Positions 1-64,000 of a DNA stretch of 64,000 bases are shown piece by piece (positions within the stretch are counted from its first letter, which is position 1; each line of letters begins with the position of its first letter). The DNA lies in the IMG/VR virus record IMGVR_UViG_3300028590_000013, positions 1 to 64,000 of that record; one strand, 5' to 3'. The stretch comes from a virus. The position numbers were made by a program, and so were the translations under genes. Below the pieces are notes generated by a model, which had not been told where the DNA came from, ran no database searches, and saw only the letters and a list, made by a program, of their open reading frames with translations.

Positions 1-57
1 CCACGTGAGCCGCTCCTCTTCATTCATTTCATTTTTTGTGTCGGGCTGAGGCGGGAT

Positions 58-112
58 GGTGGGAGGGGGGTGGTTGACCCCCTTTAGGGGGGCCACCCCC
101 CTACCTCCCACC
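58..112. repeat. G/C-rich imperfect palindrome (long hairpin)
   Basis: GGTGGGAGG (58-66) pairs with CCTCCCACC (104-112), GGGGTGG with CCACCCC, inner CCCCC-TTTA-GGGGG. Confidence 0.7.
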
Positions 113-205
113 CCAGAGCCTTTGGTGGCAACCGCGGTAGCCTCACTAGCTTTAGTGCGGGCAGGCCTTGCGAAGCTAACGCGCTTGTTCACGTAGCTCT
201 CCTTG

Positions 206-765: not shown

Positions 766-1500
766 ATGTTCGGCAAAAACCCCATTCGCGGCATCCTCCG
801 CGACCCCCTCAATCTCGCCGTGGAGGACATCTTCTACACGATCCAAGGCGAGGGCCCGCAAGCCGGGCGCCCGGCCCTCTTCATCCGCCTCGCCGGCTGC
901 AATCTCGCCTGTCATTTCTGCGACACGCAATTCGAGAGCAAAGCCGACATGCCCGAGACCGTCGTGGATCTGCTCGAACGCATTTTCGATACCACCACGC
1001 CGAAGCAGCGCGAACTCGTAGTCATCACGGGCGGCGAGCCCATGCGGCAAGATTGGTCGGGGCTTGCCCGCGTTCTCCTCAAGGGCGGCACGGATCTCAT
1101 CCAGGTCGAGACGGCTGGTACTCTCTGGCAGCCGGGCCTCGCCGAGTTCATTGAATCCGGCGACGTTCAGCTTGTGTGCAGCCCCAAGACGCCCCAAGTG
1201 CACCGCCTCATCTCTGAATCCTGCGCGCACTGGAAATACATCATCCGTGGTGGCGAAGTCGATGTCGAAGACGGGCTCCCCAACCGCGGCACGCAGGTCG
1301 CTACGCTTGGCAAGCCCAGCCGCCTCTACCGGCCCTGGGACAGAGGCGCTTGCGATGACTACGGCACCGTGTGGCTCTCGCCTTGCGACGACTACGACGC
1401 TGAGCTGAACAAGGTGAATCTGGAACTCGCACGGGATCTGTGCCTGAAGCACGGCTACCGCTTGAGTCTGCAGATGCACAAGCTCATTCAGGTGCCGTGA
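766..1500 (+). CDS. queE: 7-carboxy-7-deazaguanine synthase (radical SAM)
   Basis: IFYTIQGEG, FIRLAGCNLACHFCDT, ITGGEP, VETAG, SPK, RLSLQMHK motifs; GAGGAG RBS; TATAAT at 730-735. Confidence 0.95.
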   Translation: MFGKNPIRGILRDPLNLAVEDIFYTIQGEGPQAGRPALFIRLAGCNLACHFCDTQFESKADMPETVVDLLERIFDTTTPKQRELVVITGGEPMRQDWSGLARVLLKGGTDLIQVETAGTLWQPGLAEFIESGDVQLVCSPKTPQVHRLISESCAHWKYIIRGGEVDVEDGLPNRGTQVATLGKPSRLYRPWDRGACDDYGTVWLSPCDDYDAELNKVNLELARDLCLKHGYRLSLQMHKLIQVP

Positions 1501-9694: not shown

Positions 9695-10555
9695 ATGAGC
9701 ACCAAAATCCTCGTCGTCCTCAGTGGCGGCCAAGACTCGACCACCTGCCTTGCCATCGCCATGCAGATGAAGGCCACCGGGCAGGTCGACGAAGTCCATG
9801 CCCTCACCTTCGACTACGGCCAGCGCCACCGCCGCGAAATCGACGCCGCCTACCAGATCGGACGGCTTGCCGGCGTCGACAGCCATGAGTTCCTCGAAGT
9901 CGGCGCCATCCTCAAAGGCACGAGCCCGCTCACGGATAGCAGCCAAGAACTCGAGCAATACGCGGACCACGACAGCATGGCCGCCATCATCGGCGACCGC
10001 GTGGAGAAGACCTTCGTGCCGATGCGCAACGCCCTCTTTCTAACCCTCGCCGCGAATCGCGCCGTGGTGATGGGGGCCAAGGCGATCATGACCGGCGTGT
10101 GCGAGGCCGACAACGCCAACTACCCGGACTGCCGCTATGACTTCATTAGCGCCCAGCAGGCGGCCATCAACGAGGCCTTGGGCTTCAGCGGCGGTGACGA
10201 TGGCTACATCGACATCATCACGCCGCTCATGTTCCTGAGCAAGGCGCAAAGCATCAAGCATCTGTTGAACATCGGTGGTGCCGAGCAATTCGCCTGGCTT
10301 GCCTTCAGCCACACGGCCTACGACGGCCAGTATCCGCCCCTGGGCAAGGATCACGCCACGGTGCTGCGTGCCCATGGCTTTGAAGAGGCTGGCTACCCGG
10401 ACCCCCTTATCTTGCGTGCCGTGATGGAGGGAGCCATGCCACGCCCCACCACGAAGAACTACGAGCGCGTGCCCCACGGCGTGATGCGCGCCATCGACGC
10501 TCACATCGCGACCAGCCTGAGCTGGTCGAAGGAAGGGGTGAAGAGCAATGGCTGA
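9695..10555 (+). CDS. queC: 7-cyano-7-deazaguanine (preQ0) synthase
   Basis: SGGQDSTT, FDYGQRH, TFVPMRNALFL, YPDCR, TPLMFLSKA. Confidence 0.95.
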   Translation: MSTKILVVLSGGQDSTTCLAIAMQMKATGQVDEVHALTFDYGQRHRREIDAAYQIGRLAGVDSHEFLEVGAILKGTSPLTDSSQELEQYADHDSMAAIIGDRVEKTFVPMRNALFLTLAANRAVVMGAKAIMTGVCEADNANYPDCRYDFISAQQAAINEALGFSGGDDGYIDIITPLMFLSKAQSIKHLLNIGGAEQFAWLAFSHTAYDGQYPPLGKDHATVLRAHGFEEAGYPDPLILRAVMEGAMPRPTTKNYERVPHGVMRAIDAHIATSLSWSKEGVKSNG

Positions 10556-11156
10556 AAGCAAGGGCCCCTACAAGCGTTTCCAGCCCATGGTGGGTGGTGC
10601 CATCGACAGCGCCGCCTACGCCACGGAAGGCCTCTTGCGGGCCATTGGCGAGGATCCCACGCGCCCAGGCTTGCGTGAGACGCCGATGCGCGTTGCCAAA
10701 GCCTGGGCCGAGTGGACGAGCGGCTACAGCCAGGATCCCGGTGAGATCCTCAAGACGTTCGAGGATGGCGCTGAGGGCGTGGATGAGATGGTGGTGGTCA
10801 AGGACATCGAGATCTACAGCCACTGCGAGCATCACATGGCGCCCTTCTTCGGCGTGGCGCACATCGCCTACATCCCCAACGGCAAAATCGTGGGCCTCTC
10901 GAAGCTCGCTCGCCTTGCCGACATCTTCGCCCATCGCCTGCAGGTGCAAGAGCGCCTAACTAACGACATTGCCAATGCGCTGGTGGAGCACCTGAACCCC
11001 GTGGGCGTGGGCGTCGTCGTTGAAGCCCGCCACTTTTGCATGTGCTCGCGCGGCATCAAGAAGCAAGGCTCCTCCACGATCACCTCCGCGCTCCGCGGTG
11101 CCATCAAGGACAAGGCCGAGGCCCGCGCCGAGTTCATGGCCTTTGTGAAGGGCTGA
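10548..11156 (+). CDS. folE: GTP cyclohydrolase I
   Basis: GLRETPMRV, SHCEHHMAPF, GLSKLAR, RLQVQERLT, HFCMCSRG. Confidence 0.97.
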   Translation: MAESKGPYKRFQPMVGGAIDSAAYATEGLLRAIGEDPTRPGLRETPMRVAKAWAEWTSGYSQDPGEILKTFEDGAEGVDEMVVVKDIEIYSHCEHHMAPFFGVAHIAYIPNGKIVGLSKLARLADIFAHRLQVQERLTNDIANALVEHLNPVGVGVVVEARHFCMCSRGIKKQGSSTITSALRGAIKDKAEARAEFMAFVKG

Positions 11157-55403: not shown

Positions 55404-56153
55404 CTAGAGTTCGGGGAAGATGGGCTCCGCATAGCAGCGGCAGTTAGGGCCGCAGCCTGCGTGGTAGGGGTCGAGGTTCTTGTCCGTCTTTGGCGGCGAG
55501 TCCCAGCGAATGAACTTGCCGTTCTGTGCCTTGTGGGTTTCGCGCACGTCGCTATCCTCACTCGTGCGCCAGATGTAGCCCTCGCTGCCGACTTGCATGG
55601 CGCGGGCCTGATGGAAGTTCGCCGACGTGCGGGCCACCTCCGTGCGAGCGATGAGGCGGGCACGGCTCTTTGTCACGCCCGTGCTTGCCTGGATCTCGCG
55701 GCTGATGCTCTCGGCCCGGCGCCCCGTGGAGAGGGCCTCTGTGGTGAGCTGGTGCACGCGCTCGCCCGCCTTCGTGGGGATGCTCTTAATCAGCTCCACG
55801 TTCTCGGCCATCATCTCGCGGTACACCACGCCTTGGGGACTGGTGGCAAGCTCACGGCGGATCTCGCGGCCCATCTCCTTCCCCACGCGCTTCCAGATCA
55901 CTTCGTTGCGCCGGTTGACGTCAGCCACCATCGAGTTAGCCACGCTGGTGGCCCAGGGCGTGATGAGGGCGCTGTAGCGGTTGAGCATGTCGAGGAGGGC
56001 ACCCATGTCGGAGACCACGCCATTGGGGGCCATGGCGTCAATCATGGCCCCCACCTGCCGCGCTACCGTGAGGAGCCTACTCTGATACGAGCGCTCGACG
56101 CCGCTGGCCACCTCCCACTGACTTCGCTTTCCCGTTCTGTCCAGTCGTGCCAT
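55404..56153 (-). CDS. Mu gpF / SPP1 gp7-like minor head protein
   Basis: RARLIARTE, YIWRTS.D..VR..H, HAG...NCRCYAEP. Confidence 0.9.
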   Translation of the reverse strand: MARLDRTGKRSQWEVASGVERSYQSRLLTVARQVGAMIDAMAPNGVVSDMGALLDMLNRYSALITPWATSVANSMVADVNRRNEVIWKRVGKEMGREIRRELATSPQGVVYREMMAENVELIKSIPTKAGERVHQLTTEALSTGRRAESISREIQASTGVTKSRARLIARTEVARTSANFHQARAMQVGSEGYIWRTSEDSDVRETHKAQNGKFIRWDSPPKTDKNLDPYHAGCGPNCRCYAEPIFPEL

Positions 56154-57690
56154 CGTCGTCCCCCGGTAGTGAATTGTCCTCCTCGCCTGTGGCCCCCTTG
56201 GCCTTGGCAGTGGCCTCGGTGATCATGAGCTGCTGGTCGAGTTCGCTGATGGGAGGCTGCACCTCGTCATCGGCTGCCTCAATGGCCTCGCTCGTGATCT
56301 TGCCGAAGATGCCGGTCGTGCGGCTGCTCTGGCGAAGTTCCTGCATGCCGGTCTGCTGAGTGACAAGGCCTGCGTCGAGGGCCTTCGTGACGGCCTCTGC
56401 GACCTTGCCTGCCACCTCGGCCTTCTTCTCGTCGTTGAGCTGCTGAAGGCTTGCGAAGTCCAGGGCGAAGGTGGGCGGCAGCACAATCGACTTGCTGGCT
56501 GCCGTGAGCTTGTAGGTCATCAGCACGCCCTGGGTCATCTCCTTGCGCTGCTTCTGCTGGATGCTGTCGTGGTACGTGCGCATGCCGCTCTCGTCGTCCG
56601 TGCTCAAGCCACCGGGGGCCTGGCCGAAGAGGCGAGTCATGGGGATCTGCAGGGCACCACTGACTTGCATGGCGAGCTGCGTGATGACAGAGTCCACGCC
56701 CGAGAAGGCACTGGTGGCCTGCACCTCGAACTCGTCTTCGCCATCGATCAGAGTCATGCCCTCGATGCCCTGGAAGCGCCGCATCATCTCCGTGTAGGCA
56801 AGGAGGCCATTCAGCACCTGCCCACCTGCGGCCACGATCTCCCGCAGGTTCGGGATCTTCAGCGTGCGCAGGTGCGCCTTGAAGACCAGCTGCGCGGCTC
56901 CCGTGCTCGCCGAGTCAAAGGCGATGAGCCGGTCGTAGAGGCGCTCGAGTACCGAGATGCCCCAGAGGTTTTCTGTCATGGCCTGCTGATAGGGCAGCTT
57001 GATACCGACGTGGCGCAGCACCACCCGGCTGTGGTGGATGACTTGCCCGCGCAGGGCAGGGGCGTTGCTCTGCACCTTGTAGTACTTCGGCAGCCCCATG
57101 TGGGGGCCGTAGTCCGTGACGAGATCCTCCAGGCTGGGCTCCACCATCCAGCGGTCGAGGACGGTGAGGCCCTTGAACTGGTCGGGGCCCACGCTCTCCA
57201 GGCGCAGTGGCGTCTTGGGGTCCTGGCCATCGATCAGCGCTACGACGATGGAGCCCCCGTAGAGGCGCCCCCATTGGATGCCCTCGTTCAGGCTGTCCCA
57301 CACGCCGAGATTGGTGATCTCGTGTTCGAGATCCTCTTGGTCGCTGGCGTCCATCTCCGTCATGAAGTCCACGCCAGCGCGGGTCATGTCGTCGGCAATG
57401 ATGTCGATAGCCACGCCGCCCAACCAGGAGCCGCGGTGAATCCACTCGAGTAGCTGGCGGTTGCGCGTGATGGGGTTGAAGCCATAGCTGCCAGACGTCA
57501 GGGCGTTGTCGGCTCCCACGCCGAGCTTGTGGGCGAAGTTCACGAAGCTGTCGAACGTAGCGCTCCCCACGAGCTTCTTGCCGTGCTCCGGCGTCTTGTA
57601 GCCACCGGCGATGGTAAGGGCCTTGCGGGCACTTACGTCTTCGCGCTTGGCATCGCGCACGGCTGCGCGGACTGATAGCTTTGCAGCCAT
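56077..57690 (-). CDS. Portal protein (DUF1073-like)
   Basis: SWL....D..ADDMTR.G, WGRLYGG, WG.SVLE, IP.TRLFG..P.G. Confidence 0.9.
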   Translation of the reverse strand: MAAKLSVRAAVRDAKREDVSARKALTIAGGYKTPEHGKKLVGSATFDSFVNFAHKLGVGADNALTSGSYGFNPITRNRQLLEWIHRGSWLGGVAIDIIADDMTRAGVDFMTEMDASDQEDLEHEITNLGVWDSLNEGIQWGRLYGGSIVVALIDGQDPKTPLRLESVGPDQFKGLTVLDRWMVEPSLEDLVTDYGPHMGLPKYYKVQSNAPALRGQVIHHSRVVLRHVGIKLPYQQAMTENLWGISVLERLYDRLIAFDSASTGAAQLVFKAHLRTLKIPNLREIVAAGGQVLNGLLAYTEMMRRFQGIEGMTLIDGEDEFEVQATSAFSGVDSVITQLAMQVSGALQIPMTRLFGQAPGGLSTDDESGMRTYHDSIQQKQRKEMTQGVLMTYKLTAASKSIVLPPTFALDFASLQQLNDEKKAEVAGKVAEAVTKALDAGLVTQQTGMQELRQSSRTTGIFGKITSEAIEAADDEVQPPISELDQQLMITEATAKAKGATGEEDNSLPGDDDGTTGQNGKAKSVGGGQRRRALVSE

Positions 57691-57700
57691 GGGCACTCCT

Positions 57701-58261
57701 TCATGTTTCTAGGTCGCTTTGCGAGAGGATCGGACTTCTCGTTTCTGCGGCGAGGGTGATGGGCTCATCGTAGACGGGGATGAGATCCTCCGATGTCGGT
57801 CCCATGAAGCCCATGTCGTAGGCCAGCGTGATGTGAGGGCGGTAGCTCGGGTAGTCCCAGCTCGCCCCTGCCTTCACGTAGTCGGCATGCCGGGCGTGCA
57901 GCTGTGGGCAGTCCAGGCACAGTACGATGGCCTCGCCAAAGCGCTCGATGCTTCGACCGCCTGGGTGAACGATCATGCCTCCGCTCATCTTGGGCACGCT
58001 GCTTGCCTTGATGGGCTTGCGCGTGTAGGCCACCGTCACGTGCGGATCCATGACGAGGGGGATGCCCCAGGTGGCCGCCCATCCAGCCAGGGCATCTGCG
58101 CTCACCTGGGAAAGAGGGTAGGCCGCATAGAGGGGCGTGGCCTCTTCCTTCGTGCCGTGCACATAGGGTTCGAGCTGGGCGGCGAGCATGTCGCGCGTCA
58201 GCCCTCGCTTCGTTGTCCTGCCCTGCATGAGCTGATGCAAGTGGACGTAGGCGCGGCTCAC
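57701..58261 (-). CDS. Acb1-like 2H phosphoesterase (anti-CBASS candidate)
   Basis: Two HxT motifs: PHVTVAYT and GASWDYPSYRPHITLAY, as in T4 57B/Acb1. Confidence 0.75.
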   Translation of the reverse strand: MSRAYVHLHQLMQGRTTKRGLTRDMLAAQLEPYVHGTKEEATPLYAAYPLSQVSADALAGWAATWGIPLVMDPHVTVAYTRKPIKASSVPKMSGGMIVHPGGRSIERFGEAIVLCLDCPQLHARHADYVKAGASWDYPSYRPHITLAYDMGFMGPTSEDLIPVYDEPITLAAETRSPILSQSDLET

Positions 58262-58931: not shown

Positions 58932-60425
58932 TCAGGTTGTCGTTAAGCCGCGCTGTGGCAGGCCCGCATTGGCTTGGCCCAGGCGCTCCCACATGCCCAT
59001 GGCCCCCTGGCGTTGGATGTAGCCATCTAGGCCGTAGCGCACGCCATCCCAAGTGTGGTCATGCTTCTGCACGAGGATAGGCAGCACGAGGGGTTGTCCC
59101 TTCTCGTCGACCTGCTTGGGGTCCACCTTCCAGCGCCACAGGAAGGCCTCGCGGGCATGCTGCACGCAGCGCGTGTGGATCACTATCTTGTTGAAGCTAC
59201 GCAAGGTCTGGATGCCGTCCTTGACGCTGCCCTCCCACTTCTCGGCTGCGCTCATGGCATAGCCCTTGCGCCGGATTGCGCTAATGGTCTCGGGGCGAGC
59301 GCCGTCAGCCTTGATGTGCCAGTCCTTGCTATCGGGCACGCTGCCATAGAACTCGTCGTACTCGTCGGTCTCTACGTGCGAGCCATAGGCCTCGTGGCTG
59401 ATGTAGAGGTCGTCTCCACGTGCCCCCGCCTCCCTAACGTTGGCGGGGAGGATGAACATGCGGCTGAGCGTCGAGGGATCCTGACTGTAGCCGAAGTCGG
59501 CGCCGAAGAGCAGCCGCGGTGCTTGCTTCCACAGCTCGTCGTCGAACTCCATGGTGACGTACTTCTGGTTGAGCACGATAGCCGAGGAGATCTTCTTGGG
59601 CATGCCAAGCCAGATGTGCTCGTAGAGGTGGAAGTCGGCTTCCCGATCTGCTTCCATTTCCTCCCGCAAGACCGACGTGAAGAAGGGATTGCGGTCGTAG
59701 TTGACCTTGTGCACGATGCTATTGGGCCGCTTGGGCTCACAGAGCGTCTCGCGCGGATCCGTGGGCGGCGCCTTCACGAAGCGTTGGTATGTGGCGTCGT
59801 TCTCGTCGATCAAGTTGAAGCTCACCCAGACCTCGGAGCCCTCCTTACGCATGGTGGGGGTCAGGCTCTGCCAGCTATTGGCCGTCACGGTCTGGGCTTC
59901 CTCCACCCACACGATGTCCACGCCTTCCATGGAACGTATGCCATTCTCGGCGCCATGTAGGCCCTTGAAGATGAACTCCGAGCCGATGCGCGAGTGGATG
60001 CTGTTCGCCGTGACAACGAACCAGCTATCCATGCCCAGGCGAGTGATCGTGTCCTTGAGCAGCTTATGTGAGCTGTCCTTGATGCTGATCTGGAACTCGC
60101 GAGTGCACAGAATACGTAGCGGGATCTGGCTGGCTAGCCGGACGAGGGCCTCAGCGAATGCCCAGGACTTAGCGGAGCCACGTCCACCCCAGTAGACTTT
60201 GTTGCGTGCCTTCTTGTAGTAGAGGTCGCTTAGCGGGTGGTTCTTGTCGAGGACAAGGCTCGGGCTGTTCTTGAACTCGGGGCGCAAGTCCCCGTGGTCG
60301 CTAATCCTCTCTGTGGCGGCGAGGCGACTCGCTTTGATCTTCTCCCTCCTCGCCTTCTCCGTGAGCGCCAAGATCAAAGCCTGCTTCGGCGGCAGCGCGC
60401 GCAATGATTGCGTCAAGTTCGTCAT
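58932..60425 (-). CDS. Terminase large subunit (PBSX/SPP1-like)
   Basis: WGGRGSAKS, CTREFQ.SI.DS, WVEEAQ, SFN, GADFGY..DP, DH..DGVRY. Confidence 0.95.
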   Translation of the reverse strand: MTNLTQSLRALPPKQALILALTEKARREKIKASRLAATERISDHGDLRPEFKNSPSLVLDKNHPLSDLYYKKARNKVYWGGRGSAKSWAFAEALVRLASQIPLRILCTREFQISIKDSSHKLLKDTITRLGMDSWFVVTANSIHSRIGSEFIFKGLHGAENGIRSMEGVDIVWVEEAQTVTANSWQSLTPTMRKEGSEVWVSFNLIDENDATYQRFVKAPPTDPRETLCEPKRPNSIVHKVNYDRNPFFTSVLREEMEADREADFHLYEHIWLGMPKKISSAIVLNQKYVTMEFDDELWKQAPRLLFGADFGYSQDPSTLSRMFILPANVREAGARGDDLYISHEAYGSHVETDEYDEFYGSVPDSKDWHIKADGARPETISAIRRKGYAMSAAEKWEGSVKDGIQTLRSFNKIVIHTRCVQHAREAFLWRWKVDPKQVDEKGQPLVLPILVQKHDHTWDGVRYGLDGYIQRQGAMGMWERLGQANAGLPQRGLTTT

Positions 60426-60711
60426 CGGGCACTCCACTAATCACTTCAACAGTACTGATCTTTGGCGCGTAGTAGGGCGCTGCCGCCTTCATGGCATCCA
60501 CGCGGGTCTGGAAGTCGTAGGGCTCTGGCTCTTCGATGACAAGGCCACGCTTCACCACGACTCTATGCATGGGCTCTCCACGTGCTACCTGGAGAAGCAG
60601 CTCGTGTGGCAGCAAGCCCTGCAGCTTGGCTTGCTCGATAGCCTGGGCTGCCAGCTTGTTCATGCTGCCTACAGGCCTGCCACCCTTGTTCTTTGGCTTT
60701 GGTGTTTCCAC
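60301..60711 (-). CDS. Terminase small subunit
   Basis: GGRPVGS.NK, P.E.LL, R.DA.KAAAPY..PK; AGGAG RBS; overlaps the TerL start. Confidence 0.75.
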   Translation of the reverse strand: METPKPKNKGGRPVGSMNKLAAQAIEQAKLQGLLPHELLLQVARGEPMHRVVVKRGLVIEEPEPYDFQTRVDAMKAAAPYYAPKISTVEVISGVPDDELDAIIARAAAEAGFDLGAHGEGEEGEDQSESPRRHRED

Positions 60712-60754
60712 GGTATTTATCTCCTATGCCCACGTTGAGGCGCTGACGCACGAA

Positions 60755-60789
60755 AGCCTACGTAAGGCTCGTTAGGTCTTACGTAGGCT
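60755..60789. other. 12-bp perfect hairpin upstream of terS
   Basis: AGCCTACGTAAG / CTTACGTAGGCT with an 11-nt loop. Confidence 0.8.
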
Positions 60790-60798
60790 ATGTGAATA

Positions 60799-61350
60799 GT
60801 GGGGGCCACCAGAGGCTGCTTCGCCTGTCATGCCCAAGAGGGTGAGTGCACCCGTGCAAGAGAAAGCCTCATGGCTCCCGCTGATGCATATCCTCTGGTG
60901 GCTTATCTGGGAAGGGCCTCTCAGCCCCTCTGTCTCGTTGCCTGCCTAGGTTCCCATGGCTGTCGCCAAATTCCAGGGCTTACGGCATTCGCGAACGCAG
61001 GGTCTAGCGTGGTGCCGCGCATATGTCAGCTGGGGCATTCAAGGAGCCGAGCTGCTCCTCTGTTAGTGCTGGTTACGTTATCCAGCTCGTGAGGCATCGA
61101 CGTATGACGTTCATCTGCACATGCTCTTGTGCTTATCCCTTGCTTACGCGAAGAGAAGGCCAGGCGCTTCTTAGCTATAGGCCATCGCGGCTCATTGCCC
61201 ACATAGGGGCCTATCGCCCACAGAGCTTGTGGGCACACGTGGGCAAGGGTTGGTTGCCTTGCGCCTCTCGTGAATGGTGGGAAGGCCATGCGGCTAAGTC
61301 ATGGCTCAAGCTGGAGTAGCGCGCTGACAGATCCATCGCCGGAGGATGGG
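60799..61350 (+). ncRNA. Candidate large structured ncRNA A
   Basis: No credible ORF; many nested stems, several with + strand G-U pairs. Confidence 0.45.
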
Positions 61351-61385
61351 TGCCCCGCTTCGCCTCACTTGCCTCTAAGGCCTGG

Positions 61386-61601
61386 CTACAGGCTTCTTCC
61401 CTTATTCGTTGGCTGCATTTCACGTGCACTGATGATCAGCACTCCAGGCTTCTCCCGCTCCAGCACGTAGCCACTCACCAGATAGTGCTTCACCGTTCTT
61501 CCAATGCTCACTCTCATGTGGGGATCATCCACGATCTGCTGCGTGAGTTCGAGGAGATAGGCTGGTGTGCCCTGGATGACCAGCTTGGATTCTTCAGGCA
61601 T
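61386..61601 (-). CDS. hypothetical protein
   Basis: GGAGG RBS; coupled to the upstream ORF. Confidence 0.5.
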   Translation of the reverse strand: MPEESKLVIQGTPAYLLELTQQIVDDPHMRVSIGRTVKHYLVSGYVLEREKPGVLIISAREMQPTNKGRSL

Positions 61602-61956
61602 GGCAGCCTCCCATGAGCCAATCAATCTGTCGTGGCTCGTAGCCCATGTCGACGAGAGCCAACACAGTGCGCGCCACGTTCTCCGCCATCCTGCCACGTG
61701 CAAGGCGTTCATTCCGCAGAGCACGCAGATCCACGTCGTTGTAGAGGATCTCTTCAGCCGTGAAAGCGCGCTGCAGATGGCAGCCCACAGAGATCTCCTT
61801 GGGCAGTGACGTGATCTCCATTTCTGGGAGCACGTCGAGCTTCAGATCAACGACAAGAGATCCGTGTGGGCCATTGCGAATGGGGCCCACGACAACGCAG
61901 CCCACCTTTTCGCCGCGCTCATTGCGAAGATCCACGCCATCGATGTGTAAGCTCAT
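61594..61956 (-). CDS. hypothetical protein
   Basis: AGGAG RBS. Confidence 0.55.
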   Translation of the reverse strand: MSLHIDGVDLRNERGEKVGCVVVGPIRNGPHGSLVVDLKLDVLPEMEITSLPKEISVGCHLQRAFTAEEILYNDVDLRALRNERLARGRMAENVARTVLALVDMGYEPRQIDWLMGGCHA

Positions 61957-62017
61957 TTCTTTCTCCTGGGAGGGCATCCGACTAGTAGCCCGGGTGGGGC
62001 TACTAAGCTGAGGCTCT

Positions 62018-62485
62018 CTAGAACCTTGCATCGCCGTGACGTTGCTTCCACAAGGTCATCGGGCTCATCTTCTGCCGCATGGCCTCGCCCACGAAGAATG
62101 GGCTCGTTGGTGCCAGCATCTGCGCGTTGTGCTCGCCCTTGTTCAAGGCAAGCAGTGGTTCGTTGAGCGTGACTTCCAGCTTGGTGACGTCATCGGAGCT
62201 AAGGAAGGCTTCGATGCTGAACTCGTCGCTTGTCGTGTGGAGCAAGCTGGGTTCAGCCTGCCGCCACGCCTCAAGCGCCCTGGAGAGCGCTTCATTCACG
62301 CTCCTCAGGCCCTCGGCATCGGCTTTGAGGCGGAGCTGCTGGTGGAGCGCCGATGTCATCTCATTGTGAATGACGGCCATGAGGCGCGTGAAGCAACTCA
62401 TCTGCAGCAGGGCGTTGTTCTCGGCCTGCCACTTGATTTGCGCGGCCTCGCGTTGCGCCAGGCTCATGGTGAAGAAGCTCACCAT
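62018..62485 (-). CDS. hypothetical protein
   Basis: AGGAG RBS; GTATAGATAGG motif upstream. Confidence 0.55.
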   Translation of the reverse strand: MVSFFTMSLAQREAAQIKWQAENNALLQMSCFTRLMAVIHNEMTSALHQQLRLKADAEGLRSVNEALSRALEAWRQAEPSLLHTTSDEFSIEAFLSSDDVTKLEVTLNEPLLALNKGEHNAQMLAPTSPFFVGEAMRQKMSPMTLWKQRHGDARF

Positions 62486-62548
62486 GGTCTCCTAAAGGCT
62501 CGGACGATGTGCCGTCTGGGCTGCTTGCGAATGACCCGCGGTCGCACT

Positions 62549-63097
62549 CTACGCATGTTCGTTTCCTTGCAGTGGTTGGAGCCTATCTATACGCTCAAGG
62601 GCGTCCCAGAGCCGTAACCCTGCGAGGCGCGCAATGTCAATGACTTCATGCGGCAAGAGCTTCTCCGCATCCCTGTTCGGCTTTGAGCGGCGCCATGACG
62701 CAATGCTGGCTCGGCCTGGACTCCCGGAGGCCAAGAGAATGCCCGAGGCCGCTGGAACGAAAGCCGCCAGCTCAGGTGTCCAGACCTCTGTTGGGATCAG
62801 GTAGTAGTGCTTCCAGATCTTGGGCGGCCATTCCCTGGGGCTAGGCTCACTAGGCCTGCGGCTGCGGGACCAAGGCCGCTCTCGCCACCACTTGTCCTTC
62901 TTGGCATCAGCCTTGAAGTCGCTGCGGCTTATCTTCATCTCCACGTCTATCAGACGGCAATCCTTGCTGACGACGAGGAGGTCGGCCTCGTGGCCTGTCC
63001 AGCCGCAGCAGGGCACAGCCAGGACTGAGTTCTGAAAGAACTGGCGGACGAGAGCTTTGGTGAGGCTTGCCTCACTCCATGGCATGGGCTTCTTCAT
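62549..63097 (-). CDS. MmcB-like PD-(D/E)xK nuclease-fold protein
   Basis: EADLLVV...DVEMKISRSDFKAD..K, YY..P, GIL. Confidence 0.7.
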   Translation of the reverse strand: MKKPMPWSEASLTKALVRQFFQNSVLAVPCCGWTGHEADLLVVSKDCRLIDVEMKISRSDFKADAKKDKWWRERPWSRSRRPSEPSPREWPPKIWKHYYLIPTEVWTPELAAFVPAASGILLASGSPGRASIASWRRSKPNRDAEKLLPHEVIDIARLAGLRLWDALERIDRLQPLQGNEHA

Positions 63098-63103
63098 ATC
63101 TAT

Positions 63104-63515
63104 TCCCTTTTCTGTGCCTTGAGCTGATCCAGCCATGCCGTGAAGCTGCTGGGGCCACTCATATCGCATAACGAAGCCTGCTAGGTCAAGCCTAGTGGTG
63201 CAACGAAGGGGTTTGTGGGTGGCAACCCGCCCAAGCCTCAAGGCACAGAAAAGGGAGATGGTCAAGTCCACTGCGGCGGCTCACATGGGGCAGTGGGGGA
63301 GACATGGAAAGGGCTTTCTCTTCAGAGCAACCAACGGCGCCAACCCGTTGGACCCCGAGTAGGGACTCAACCATCACAGGAGCGCCTTCGGCAAGCGGCA
63401 GTGAAGGTTTCTTAGGCCTCGTTGCCATTATTAGGGAGCCGGGTTCACCGCTACCTACTCTCCGAAGACTCTCCTGTGATGGCTTAGAAAGAAGCCCGGT
63501 CCGACGCGGGCTTCT
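63104..63515 (+). ncRNA. Candidate large structured ncRNA B
   Basis: 20-bp and 12-bp perfect long-range stems enclosing multibranch hairpins with + strand G-U pairs. Confidence 0.55.
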
Positions 63516-63823
63516 CCACTCAAGCATCTCGGAGCAATTGCGCTACATATAGCCTCCAGGTGGTCACCGCATGAGAGGCCCCCACCGCGGGGGCGCCGTG
63601 CAGCTCGGCATGCCAATCTATACGCCGCTAAAAAGGATCCCCGGAGGCTCCGGCTGTGGCCTCCGGGGAGCTGGGCAGAAATGCGAGGAGGGGCAACCCT
63701 TCCCAACGTTGAAAGGGCCCTGACTTGCGCCTTGTGGCGGGGCTCCGGGAGACTGGCGGCGGCCCTGCCCTGCGTCCTCCATGCCTCTCGATGGCGCCCA
63801 GCCACCACGCGATTTCTCCAATG

Positions 63824-63847
63824 AAAAAGCCCGCTTGTGGCGGGCTT
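63824..63847 (-). terminator. Rho-independent terminator
   Basis: On the - strand AAGCCCGC-CACAA-GCGGGCTT followed by TTT. Confidence 0.7.
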
Positions 63848-64000
63848 CCCGTTGCGGTGGCGGAACTTCCACCACTAGCAAATTGCTGCGCATATTAGCT
63901 TGTTTTCACCAAGCCAACAAACTTTTGCGTTTTGCCCACAAAAAGCCACTAGCCCTCCCCAGTCTCTGCCTGCACAGCGAGGGCTGCGCTCTTGGTCAAG

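Follow-up and report, generated by a model that had tools for sequence, protein, structure and literature searches.

RNase III processing sites in phage transcripts include those of the lambda N leader and the T7/T3 intergenic sites, and a 20-bp duplex is a good substrate for the enzyme. The lambdoid late leader leads from pR' through a short 6S RNA to tR' and is controlled by Q antitermination. In phage T4, as PMC3014915 describes it, early transcripts of genes e, soc, 49 and I-TevI sequester the Shine-Dalgarno sequence (SD) or the AUG in a helix, and late transcripts are made without the 5' strand of that helix. For adhE and lambda cIII, PMC5371410 describes RNase III cleavage that unmasks an occluded ribosome-binding site.

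The locus described here was originally predicted to encode a large novel structured RNA, made opposite to the flanking genes and either of GOLLD/ROOL-like scale or of a new class. We propose that the element is instead the gene-proximal half of a modular, hairpin-rich 850-nt late-operon leader or inter-operon region on the minus strand, in which the part next to the gene (block A) would serve as a translation lock or an RNase III processing stalk; we regard this reading as evenly poised between right and wrong. The main value of the analysis is that the 'large element' was resolved into a mosaic of independent modules, one of which is a testable element in a cultured phage.

Genome context of the gap

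The window, i.e. the whole 64,000-nt stretch that was analysed, covers the first 64 kb of one phage contig of 72,232 bp from a soil metagenome. The contig is that of a tailed phage, and its ends overlap by ~170 nt with two mismatches (window 1-200 versus genome 72063-72232), which points to a short terminal repeat or else to an assembly that is circular or permuted. In a crude ORF map, the minus strand carries every gene from 30375 to the contig end, with major capsid, baseplate and tail genes following the portal gene on that strand. The first 30 kb carry, on the plus strand, DNA polymerase A, a DnaB-like helicase and a 7-deazaguanine (queuosine-precursor) gene set. The latter, composed of radical-SAM QueE-like, QueC, GTP cyclohydrolase I and QueD-like genes (window 766-1500 and 9695-11156; genome 66819-67319), suggests modified DNA.

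The non-coding gap at 63098-63948 (850 nt) was among the largest gene-free gaps of the crude ORF map, flanked by a nucleotide-metabolism gene block on one side and by a nuclease-terminase-portal-capsid-tail operon on the other. It lies directly 5' of the MmcB-like nuclease gene that heads the minus-strand terminase/portal/capsid/tail string (Table 1), and the gene for TerL starts ~2.7 kb downstream of the element on the same strand. The nuclease gene matched phrog_2776 (E 7e-21) and, with 18.9 bits and hence under the cut-off of 22, the Pfam family PF06319 (MmcB-like). Its homologue in Edwardsiella phage vB_EpM_ZHS (hereafter ZHS) bears the annotation 'MmcB family DNA repair protein', and the N-terminus M-K-x-x-x-W-(S/T)-E-A was common to the four lineages in which related DNA was found. 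An N-terminal extension of the nuclease was considered, as the frame is open to 63271 with an in-frame ATG at 63138 in both phages, and was discarded because the homologues use the downstream ATG, a 1-nt indel separates the two phages within hairpin H3, and no SD precedes the ATG at 63138.

Table 1 Features of the gap and of the neighbouring late genes. Positions are those of the window.
Feature	Position	Strand	Remarks
Portal gene	56077-57696	-	Pfam/PHROG searches of ORFs
TerL (large terminase) gene	58932-60437	-	Pfam/PHROG searches of ORFs
MmcB-like (PD-(D/E)XK-type) nuclease gene, 182 aa	62549..63097	-	First gene downstream of the gap; ATG 63097-63095
P1 closing-helix arm with Shine-Dalgarno AAGGGA	63104..63123	-	Ends 6 nt before ATG
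Branched interior, 113 nt	63124..63236		Includes hairpin H3 (~63172-63205)
P1 partner arm, 'anti-SD' strand	63237..63256	-	133 nt upstream on the gene strand
7-bp hairpin CCACTGC...GCAGTGG	63268..63296		This phage only; paired in both-strand folds
7-bp hairpin CCAACGG...CCGTTGG	63330..63352		Uncertain counterpart of a hairpin in the other lineages
Long hairpin, 122 nt	63366..63487		This phage only; on the minus strand 12 bp, one mismatch, 8 bp including one G-U
Hairpin with U-rich tail UCUUUCUA	63485..63515 (hairpin 63490-63515)	-	Weakly terminator-like; this phage only
Conserved spacer downstream of T2	63541..63637	-	GACAACCTGGAGGCCATATG-like motif; conserved in three to four lineages
T2: 11-bp G+C-rich hairpin, then UCCUUUUU	63630..63669	-	-25.3 kcal/mol; sub-hairpin flagged by stock scan
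Structured domain between T1 and T2	63670..63820	-	Part of 70-pair minus-strand structure
T1: hairpin GCCCGC-CACAA-GCGGGC, then UUUUUCAU	63821..63845	-	UUUUUCAUUGG invariant in four lineages
Most conserved non-coding stretch, 74 nt	63852..63925	-	Near-invariant in four lineages; occurs once in genome

Four ORFs of 82-117 aa within the gap matched no Pfam or PHROG family. The GC content of the ORFs inside the gap was flat by codon position (GC3 0.52-0.73, GC2 0.52-0.64), compared to GC3 values of 0.83-0.91 and GC2 values of 0.37-0.47 in six reference genes, and indels among relatives in the gap had lengths that were not multiples of three. The gap ORFs were ruled out as genes by their codon-position GC and the absent family matches. 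These two lines of evidence, together with the folding z-scores below, bear out the original prediction in describing the stretch as non-coding and strongly structured.

Among the ORFs scanned, we recognised no antiterminator (Q-like or other), RNase III, phage RNA polymerase or reverse transcriptase; a retron, considered because inverted repeats flank the element, was rejected on the last of these counts. Elsewhere in the late region, the ORF at 57701-58261 (minus strand), located between portal and terminase, matched the anti-CBASS nuclease Acb1 family PF23474 (E 1.7e-26). A GTG-initiated 136-aa ORF at 60301-60711 (minus strand), which overlaps the TerL start and is well conserved with ZHS but unannotated there, is likely the small terminase. 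A perfect 12-bp hairpin at 60755-60789, 44-78 nt upstream of the start of this ORF, is kept in ZHS, with UUUCGUGCGUC after it on the minus strand. Beyond this hairpin, ~600 nt extending to ~61385 showed no conservation with ZHS; they probably correspond to the 'element A' of the original prediction.

Folding strength and mosaic make-up of the gap

Every inverted repeat that had been listed for the element was found where it had been placed. The 20-nt arms at 63104-63123/63237-63256 were 100% complementary, and the perfect 12-bp stem at 63371-63382/63471-63482 lay inside a 26-nt, 85% complementary pair (63366-63391/63462-63487) that also held CTTCGG/CCGAAG. The 9-bp stem at 63490-63498/63507-63515 was present, as was, among the further hairpins downstream, a perfect 11-bp stem at 63638-63648/63659-63669. 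CCACTGC/GCAGTGG (63268-63274/63290-63296) and GGCAGTGA/TCGTTGCC were readable in the sequence and paired in the computed fold.

The comparison with dinucleotide shuffles that had been suggested as a check came out in favour of structure. The stretch 63098-63530 beat its shuffles on both strands, with a minimum free energy of -190.4 kcal/mol (z -5.30) on the plus strand and -191.7 kcal/mol (z -5.39) on the minus strand, and 0/100 shuffles were as good in either case. When sub-blocks were each compared with 60 shuffles, 63098-63262 gave z -6.7 (plus) and -5.2 (minus) and 63366-63520 gave z -4.7 (plus) and -5.6 (minus), while the 107 nt between them (63259-63365) folded like shuffled sequence (z +0.45 plus, -0.18 minus). 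Across ~2,184 windows of the whole 72-kb genome, the 165-nt window at 63097 ranked 1 on the plus strand and 2 on the minus strand after GC correction; 63366-63520 ranked 7 (minus) and 14 (plus).

We searched for relatives of the gap in several collections. The sole related record in the phage collection was ZHS, whose TerL is 87% identical; the other 35 records (E up to 10) matched over only 26-41 nt around the terminator at 63824-63850. Of 46 IMG/VR loci that encode a relative of the nuclease, only four share DNA with the gap: L005, which is identical to ZHS in block A; L004, a separate lineage; and L002 and L003, which form one lineage also recovered by a metagenome scan. Pattern scans with block A, block B and the conserved flank over IMG/VR, a metagenome collection and 185,579 species genomes returned only these four known lineages, the window phage among them. 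Public sequencing runs with the stretch comprised four of soil-metagenome DNA and none of RNA; in the former, one identical contig spanned the stretch and the remainder were short unrelated pieces, with no variants and no joints. The phage group is a rare, ~70-kb, myovirus-like one, of which ZHS is the only cultured member.

Three blocks of the gap could be told apart by their distribution. Block A (63100-63258) was common only to the window phage and ZHS/L005, at 87% identity, and was absent from L004 and L003. Block B (63259-63540) was found in the window phage only, with no counterpart anywhere in the relatives' genomes and with ~50 nt in its place in ZHS. Block C (63541-63925), which lies beyond the coordinates of the original prediction, was present in conserved form in each of the four lineages. 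When a covariance model of block A was run over 49 sources (430,766 bases), it recovered the window, ZHS and L005 only, with one copy each; neither the complete L004 genome nor any of the remaining 40-odd nuclease loci gave a match, and three extra hits at E 1-4 were noise. Leader length ranged from ~90 nt to ~440 nt among the lineages. Given this mosaic distribution of blocks, there is therefore no single conserved RNA of GOLLD/ROOL scale; the gap looks like a patchwork of independent modules in which the number of hairpins differs between related phages. Comparative support comes from two distinct sequences for block A and from none for 63259-63540, and by this comparison only ~150 nt of the reported element has evolutionary support. 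The proposed large novel RNA thus holds as far as structure is concerned and fails as a conserved single unit, with compensatory changes within the element confined to 63104-63256.

None of 4227 Rfam families reached its gathering score, whether in the window, in the remainder of the genome or at the loci of three relatives. A permissive search (E up to 10) of 62900-64000 gave eight matches, all of them noise and none to GOLLD or ROOL; the best was to a plant miRNA model and scored 23.5 bits, where the gathering score is 150, and the remaining matches were terminator look-alikes at 63821-63917. The locus resembles GOLLD and ROOL in its phage setting and in its hundreds of nucleotides of dense secondary structure, but differs from them in giving no covariance-model match up to E 10, in showing no conservation as a unit and in having no tRNA genes nearby (ARAGORN, window). 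The GOLLD/ROOL-like part of the original prediction was accordingly abandoned, while its observation that no tRNA or tmRNA signature is present agrees with the 0 genes reported by ARAGORN in the window. A riboswitch was also set aside, there being no Rfam aptamer match; two sequences are too few to define a ligand-binding core.

Block B may be fast-evolving and largely non-functional filler that at most stabilises or terminates RNA in a general way, with only block A and the flank being of consequence. No relative has 63259-63540, the segment 63259-63365 folds like shuffles and the leader varies severalfold in length among lineages, all as this explanation would have it, but the z-scores and genome ranks of 63366-63520 would be hard to obtain by drift alone, and we consider it distinctly unlikely. 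The hairpins of block B are lineage-specific additions, probably terminator or stabiliser modules or else elements without a specific role. The long hairpin at 63366-63487 was unmatched in relatives. The hairpin at 63490-63515 (stem AGCCCG...CGGGCU, -9.8 kcal/mol) was caught by our own terminator scan and missed at the stricter threshold of the stock scan.

At the position of block B, the other lineages carry a hairpin with a UUUGGACGR loop (L005:3808-3846, L004:3912-3948, L003:3775-3813), the stems of which are fully different in sequence in each lineage with pairing kept. It looks like a protein- or RNA-binding hairpin. The hairpin at 63330-63352 may, with some uncertainty, be its counterpart in the window phage; MAFFT did not align the loop of this hairpin with the UUUGGACGR loops of the three lineages.

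The 20-bp helix and the start of the nuclease gene

In both phages, block A has a single copy and adjoins the start of the nuclease gene. Its closing helix (P1) has a promoter-distal arm that reads CTCAAGGCACAGAAAAGGGA on the gene strand; after six more nucleotides comes the nuclease ATG, so that this arm contains the SD. All 20/20 pairs of P1 are Watson-Crick in the window phage; in ZHS, the helix has 20/20 pairs with one U-G when read on the plus strand, or 19/20 on the minus strand.

The window phage and ZHS differ at ~22 positions in block A, twelve of which make up six double, pair-preserving changes. Two of these compensatory pairs are in P1 (CCTTGAG/CTCAAGG changed to CTCTGAG/CTCAGAG in ZHS) and four are in H3 (CTAGG/CCTAG versus CCGAG/CTCGG in ZHS, plus one flanking pair). 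The 54 (plus) or 49 (minus) pairs of block A were all standard in both phages, and none was broken on either strand. A control in which partners were slid by 1-3 columns gave zero double changes, and the observed result was reached by 9/500 (plus) or 5/500 (minus) shuffles, close to the floor of 1/64 that applies to two sequences. P1 and H3 are therefore under selection to pair. The remaining helices of block A differ between strands and show no covariation. A 27-nt stretch at 63123-63149 is identical in ZHS.

We then compared the accessibility of the nuclease start with that of other genes by folding a 200-nt stretch of upstream RNA per gene, for 82 genes in all. Opening positions -17..-6 of the nuclease gene costs 22.1 kcal/mol, which ranked 1/82; the next value was 14.5 and the median 5.15. 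By mean pairing over -15..+3, the nuclease start ranked only 23/82 because the spacer and the AUG are unpaired in the fold. The SD itself is occluded. Pairing of codons 4-8 with 63133-63145 was also considered and was rejected because ZHS does not preserve it. Searches within block A turned up no promoter-like or repeated motif, and by-eye candidates for an internal sigma-70 promoter (TTGACC..., TTCACG...) were either mis-spaced or unconserved in ZHS.

A structure closed by a perfect inverted repeat could also act as DNA, for instance as a pac or replication signal, a cruciform, a protein-binding site or a 153-bp MITE-like insertion with 20-bp terminal inverted repeats. Its location ~2.7 kb upstream of the TerL gene in one of the largest gene-free gaps would suit such an element, and its patchy presence (block A in 2/4 lineages, block B in 1/4) resembles insertion or deletion. 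In size and terminal repeats, block A may also resemble Correia-type elements. We nevertheless consider a DNA-level element very unlikely, since selection on single-strand folding is indicated both by the tolerated G-U and by the compensatory changes in H3, four in number. A replication origin was rejected for want of iterons, the only repeats found being weak two-copy direct repeats with no tandem repeats, and a MITE was rejected since no target-site duplication was seen at the flanks and the element has a single copy per genome. Exact 22-25-mers found nothing in 185,579 species genomes and only the ZHS twin in IMG/VR.

Block A could, in a more novel reading, be a ~150-nt stand-alone RNA of a new class, so far seen in ZHS-like phages only. 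Such an RNA could be an antisense transcript, or could be freed from the late leader by a cut at the 20-bp stalk, much as rRNAs are freed at their processing stalks; the interior with the 27-nt stretch would have a trans-acting role on a target in the phage or the host, and the cut would also switch on the nuclease gene. We give this version little credence.

Terminators, transcribed strand and relation to known leaders

Upstream on the gene strand, block C forms a minus-strand structure in which 91.9% of cells are paired, with 12 compensatory pairs; shuffles gave 4.2 +/- 1.6 (0/500 reached 12) and slid controls gave 2-4. It has 28 G-U cells versus 6 if read as plus strand, although prediction on the minus strand biases this comparison. 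T1 and T2 are kept in all lineages, and the stems of T2 are perfect yet different in sequence in ZHS, L004 and L003. A ~135-nt domain inside 63670-63820, closed by the 7-bp helix GCUGGGC/GCCCAGC, shows several compensatory changes across the four lineages and matches no Rfam family.

Signals for transcription were sought with a stock scan and by inspection. The stock scan found no sigma-70-like promoter in 60300-64000, and its two terminators, against 3.1 +/- 1.6 expected, were no excess; it missed T1 because the stem was extended into the U-run. Within the most conserved stretch, the minus strand carries a promoter-like TTGTTG (63920-63915) and, 17 nt on, TAATAT (63897-63892), followed by a 7-bp hairpin and then T1. 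This pair of boxes fits the consensus at 7/12 positions and is absent from the stock scan list. It could be a weak promoter for a short terminated RNA (~65 nt), a gated start of the late operon, or the end of the upstream operon. The conserved spacer at 63541-63637 is a possible start region of the late leader and may serve as its promoter.

Hairpins followed by a T-run were polarised in our own scan, with 3 on the minus strand versus 1 on the plus strand in the window, in ZHS and in L004, and 1 versus 0 in L003; the one at 63490-63515 is among the three of the window. The long hairpin region at 63366-63520 and block C folded somewhat better on the minus strand. Block A folded better on the plus strand, both in the window (z-scores above) and in ZHS (z -5.4 versus -2.9), and its plus-strand consensus fold (57 pairs, -75.2 kcal/mol) exceeded the minus-strand one (49 pairs, -68.1 kcal/mol). 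The single one-sided change in the 20-bp helix of ZHS leaves a U-G pair if the plus strand is read and C-A if the minus strand is; three other one-sided changes give G-U pairs within helices that are predicted for the minus strand only, and the six compensatory pairs fit both strands equally.

These data bear on the claim that G-T pairs on the plus strand imply an RNA made opposite to the genes. The G-T pairs exist, but they do not settle the strand because the minus strand also has wobbles of its own, for example in the long hairpin at 63366-63487. An RNA opposite to the genes is unproven, with no promoter or terminator found on the plus strand and with hairpin-plus-U-run signals that point along the minus strand in all lineages. 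Block A, perhaps with neighbouring hairpins, might still be read as a plus-strand antisense RNA over the nuclease ribosome-binding site or as a new small structured RNA. Such an RNA would account for the better plus-strand folds in both phages, with their additional consensus pairs and lower energy, for the ZHS substitution in the 20-bp helix that is a wobble on the plus strand only, and for block A being the best-folding 165-nt plus-strand window of the genome. Yet the plus strand has no promoter-like site at the 5' end of the nuclease gene and no hairpin with a U-run after block A, two absences that speak against a cis-antisense phage RNA of the sar/OOP type. The compensatory pairs are strand-neutral and the three G-U changes speak for the minus strand; no Rfam family was matched, and the neighbouring hairpins are not conserved with block A. 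We consider a plus-strand RNA unlikely. Gene context tips the balance for block A towards the minus strand.

If block A is part of a minus-strand late leader, the conserved promoter-like element and the two tandem intrinsic terminators at 63541-63925 suggest gated transcription into the late genes. The gate might be opened by antitermination or bypassed by a promoter just below the second terminator. In transcripts that carry both strands of P1, the nuclease translation start would be blocked. Two routes of release can be envisaged: RNase III could cut the 20-bp duplex and so open the nuclease ribosome-binding site, or a late transcript could start inside the block A domain and lack the upstream P1 strand.

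The lambdoid late leader is the closest parallel for the distal part of this arrangement, which lies outside the coordinates of the original prediction. The likeness consists of a promoter-like element, a hairpin and a strong intrinsic terminator within ~70 nt and a second terminator after it, and of the placement of the tandem terminators upstream of packaging and morphogenesis genes, on the gene strand. The differences are that no Q-like antiterminator was recognised among the scanned ORFs and that the candidate promoter is weak by consensus. For block A, comparison with RNase III sites is apt. Known phage sites are compact hairpins with internal loops, whereas here a stalk would close a 113-nt multi-hairpin domain. 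The likeness to the cases in PMC5371410 is that a ribosome-binding site is occluded by a perfect untranslated duplex some two helical turns long.

The hairpins of T4 described in PMC3014915 share with this locus the burial of a phage gene's SD by an upstream strand, and the gene here also encodes a nuclease, like gp49 and I-TevI. As in the T4 cases covered there, long read-through transcripts would be translationally silent. T4 hairpins are short and have the late promoter TATAAATA in or at the 5' strand, and there is no sequence relationship to the present locus. Here the strands are 113 nt apart, with a branched domain between them in which no internal promoter was found. Because block A has no promoter-like or repeated motif, the T4-type version of the mechanism would lack its defining late promoter. 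If our reading is correct, control at the RNA level would set the timing of a nuclease that could be dangerous, and perhaps of the packaging operon as a whole, in a rare phage group; the device, a 20-bp lock on a 113-nt domain behind two tandem terminators, would be unusually large. Rather than a new class of giant RNA, it would be a further variant among controls of the T4 and RNase III types.
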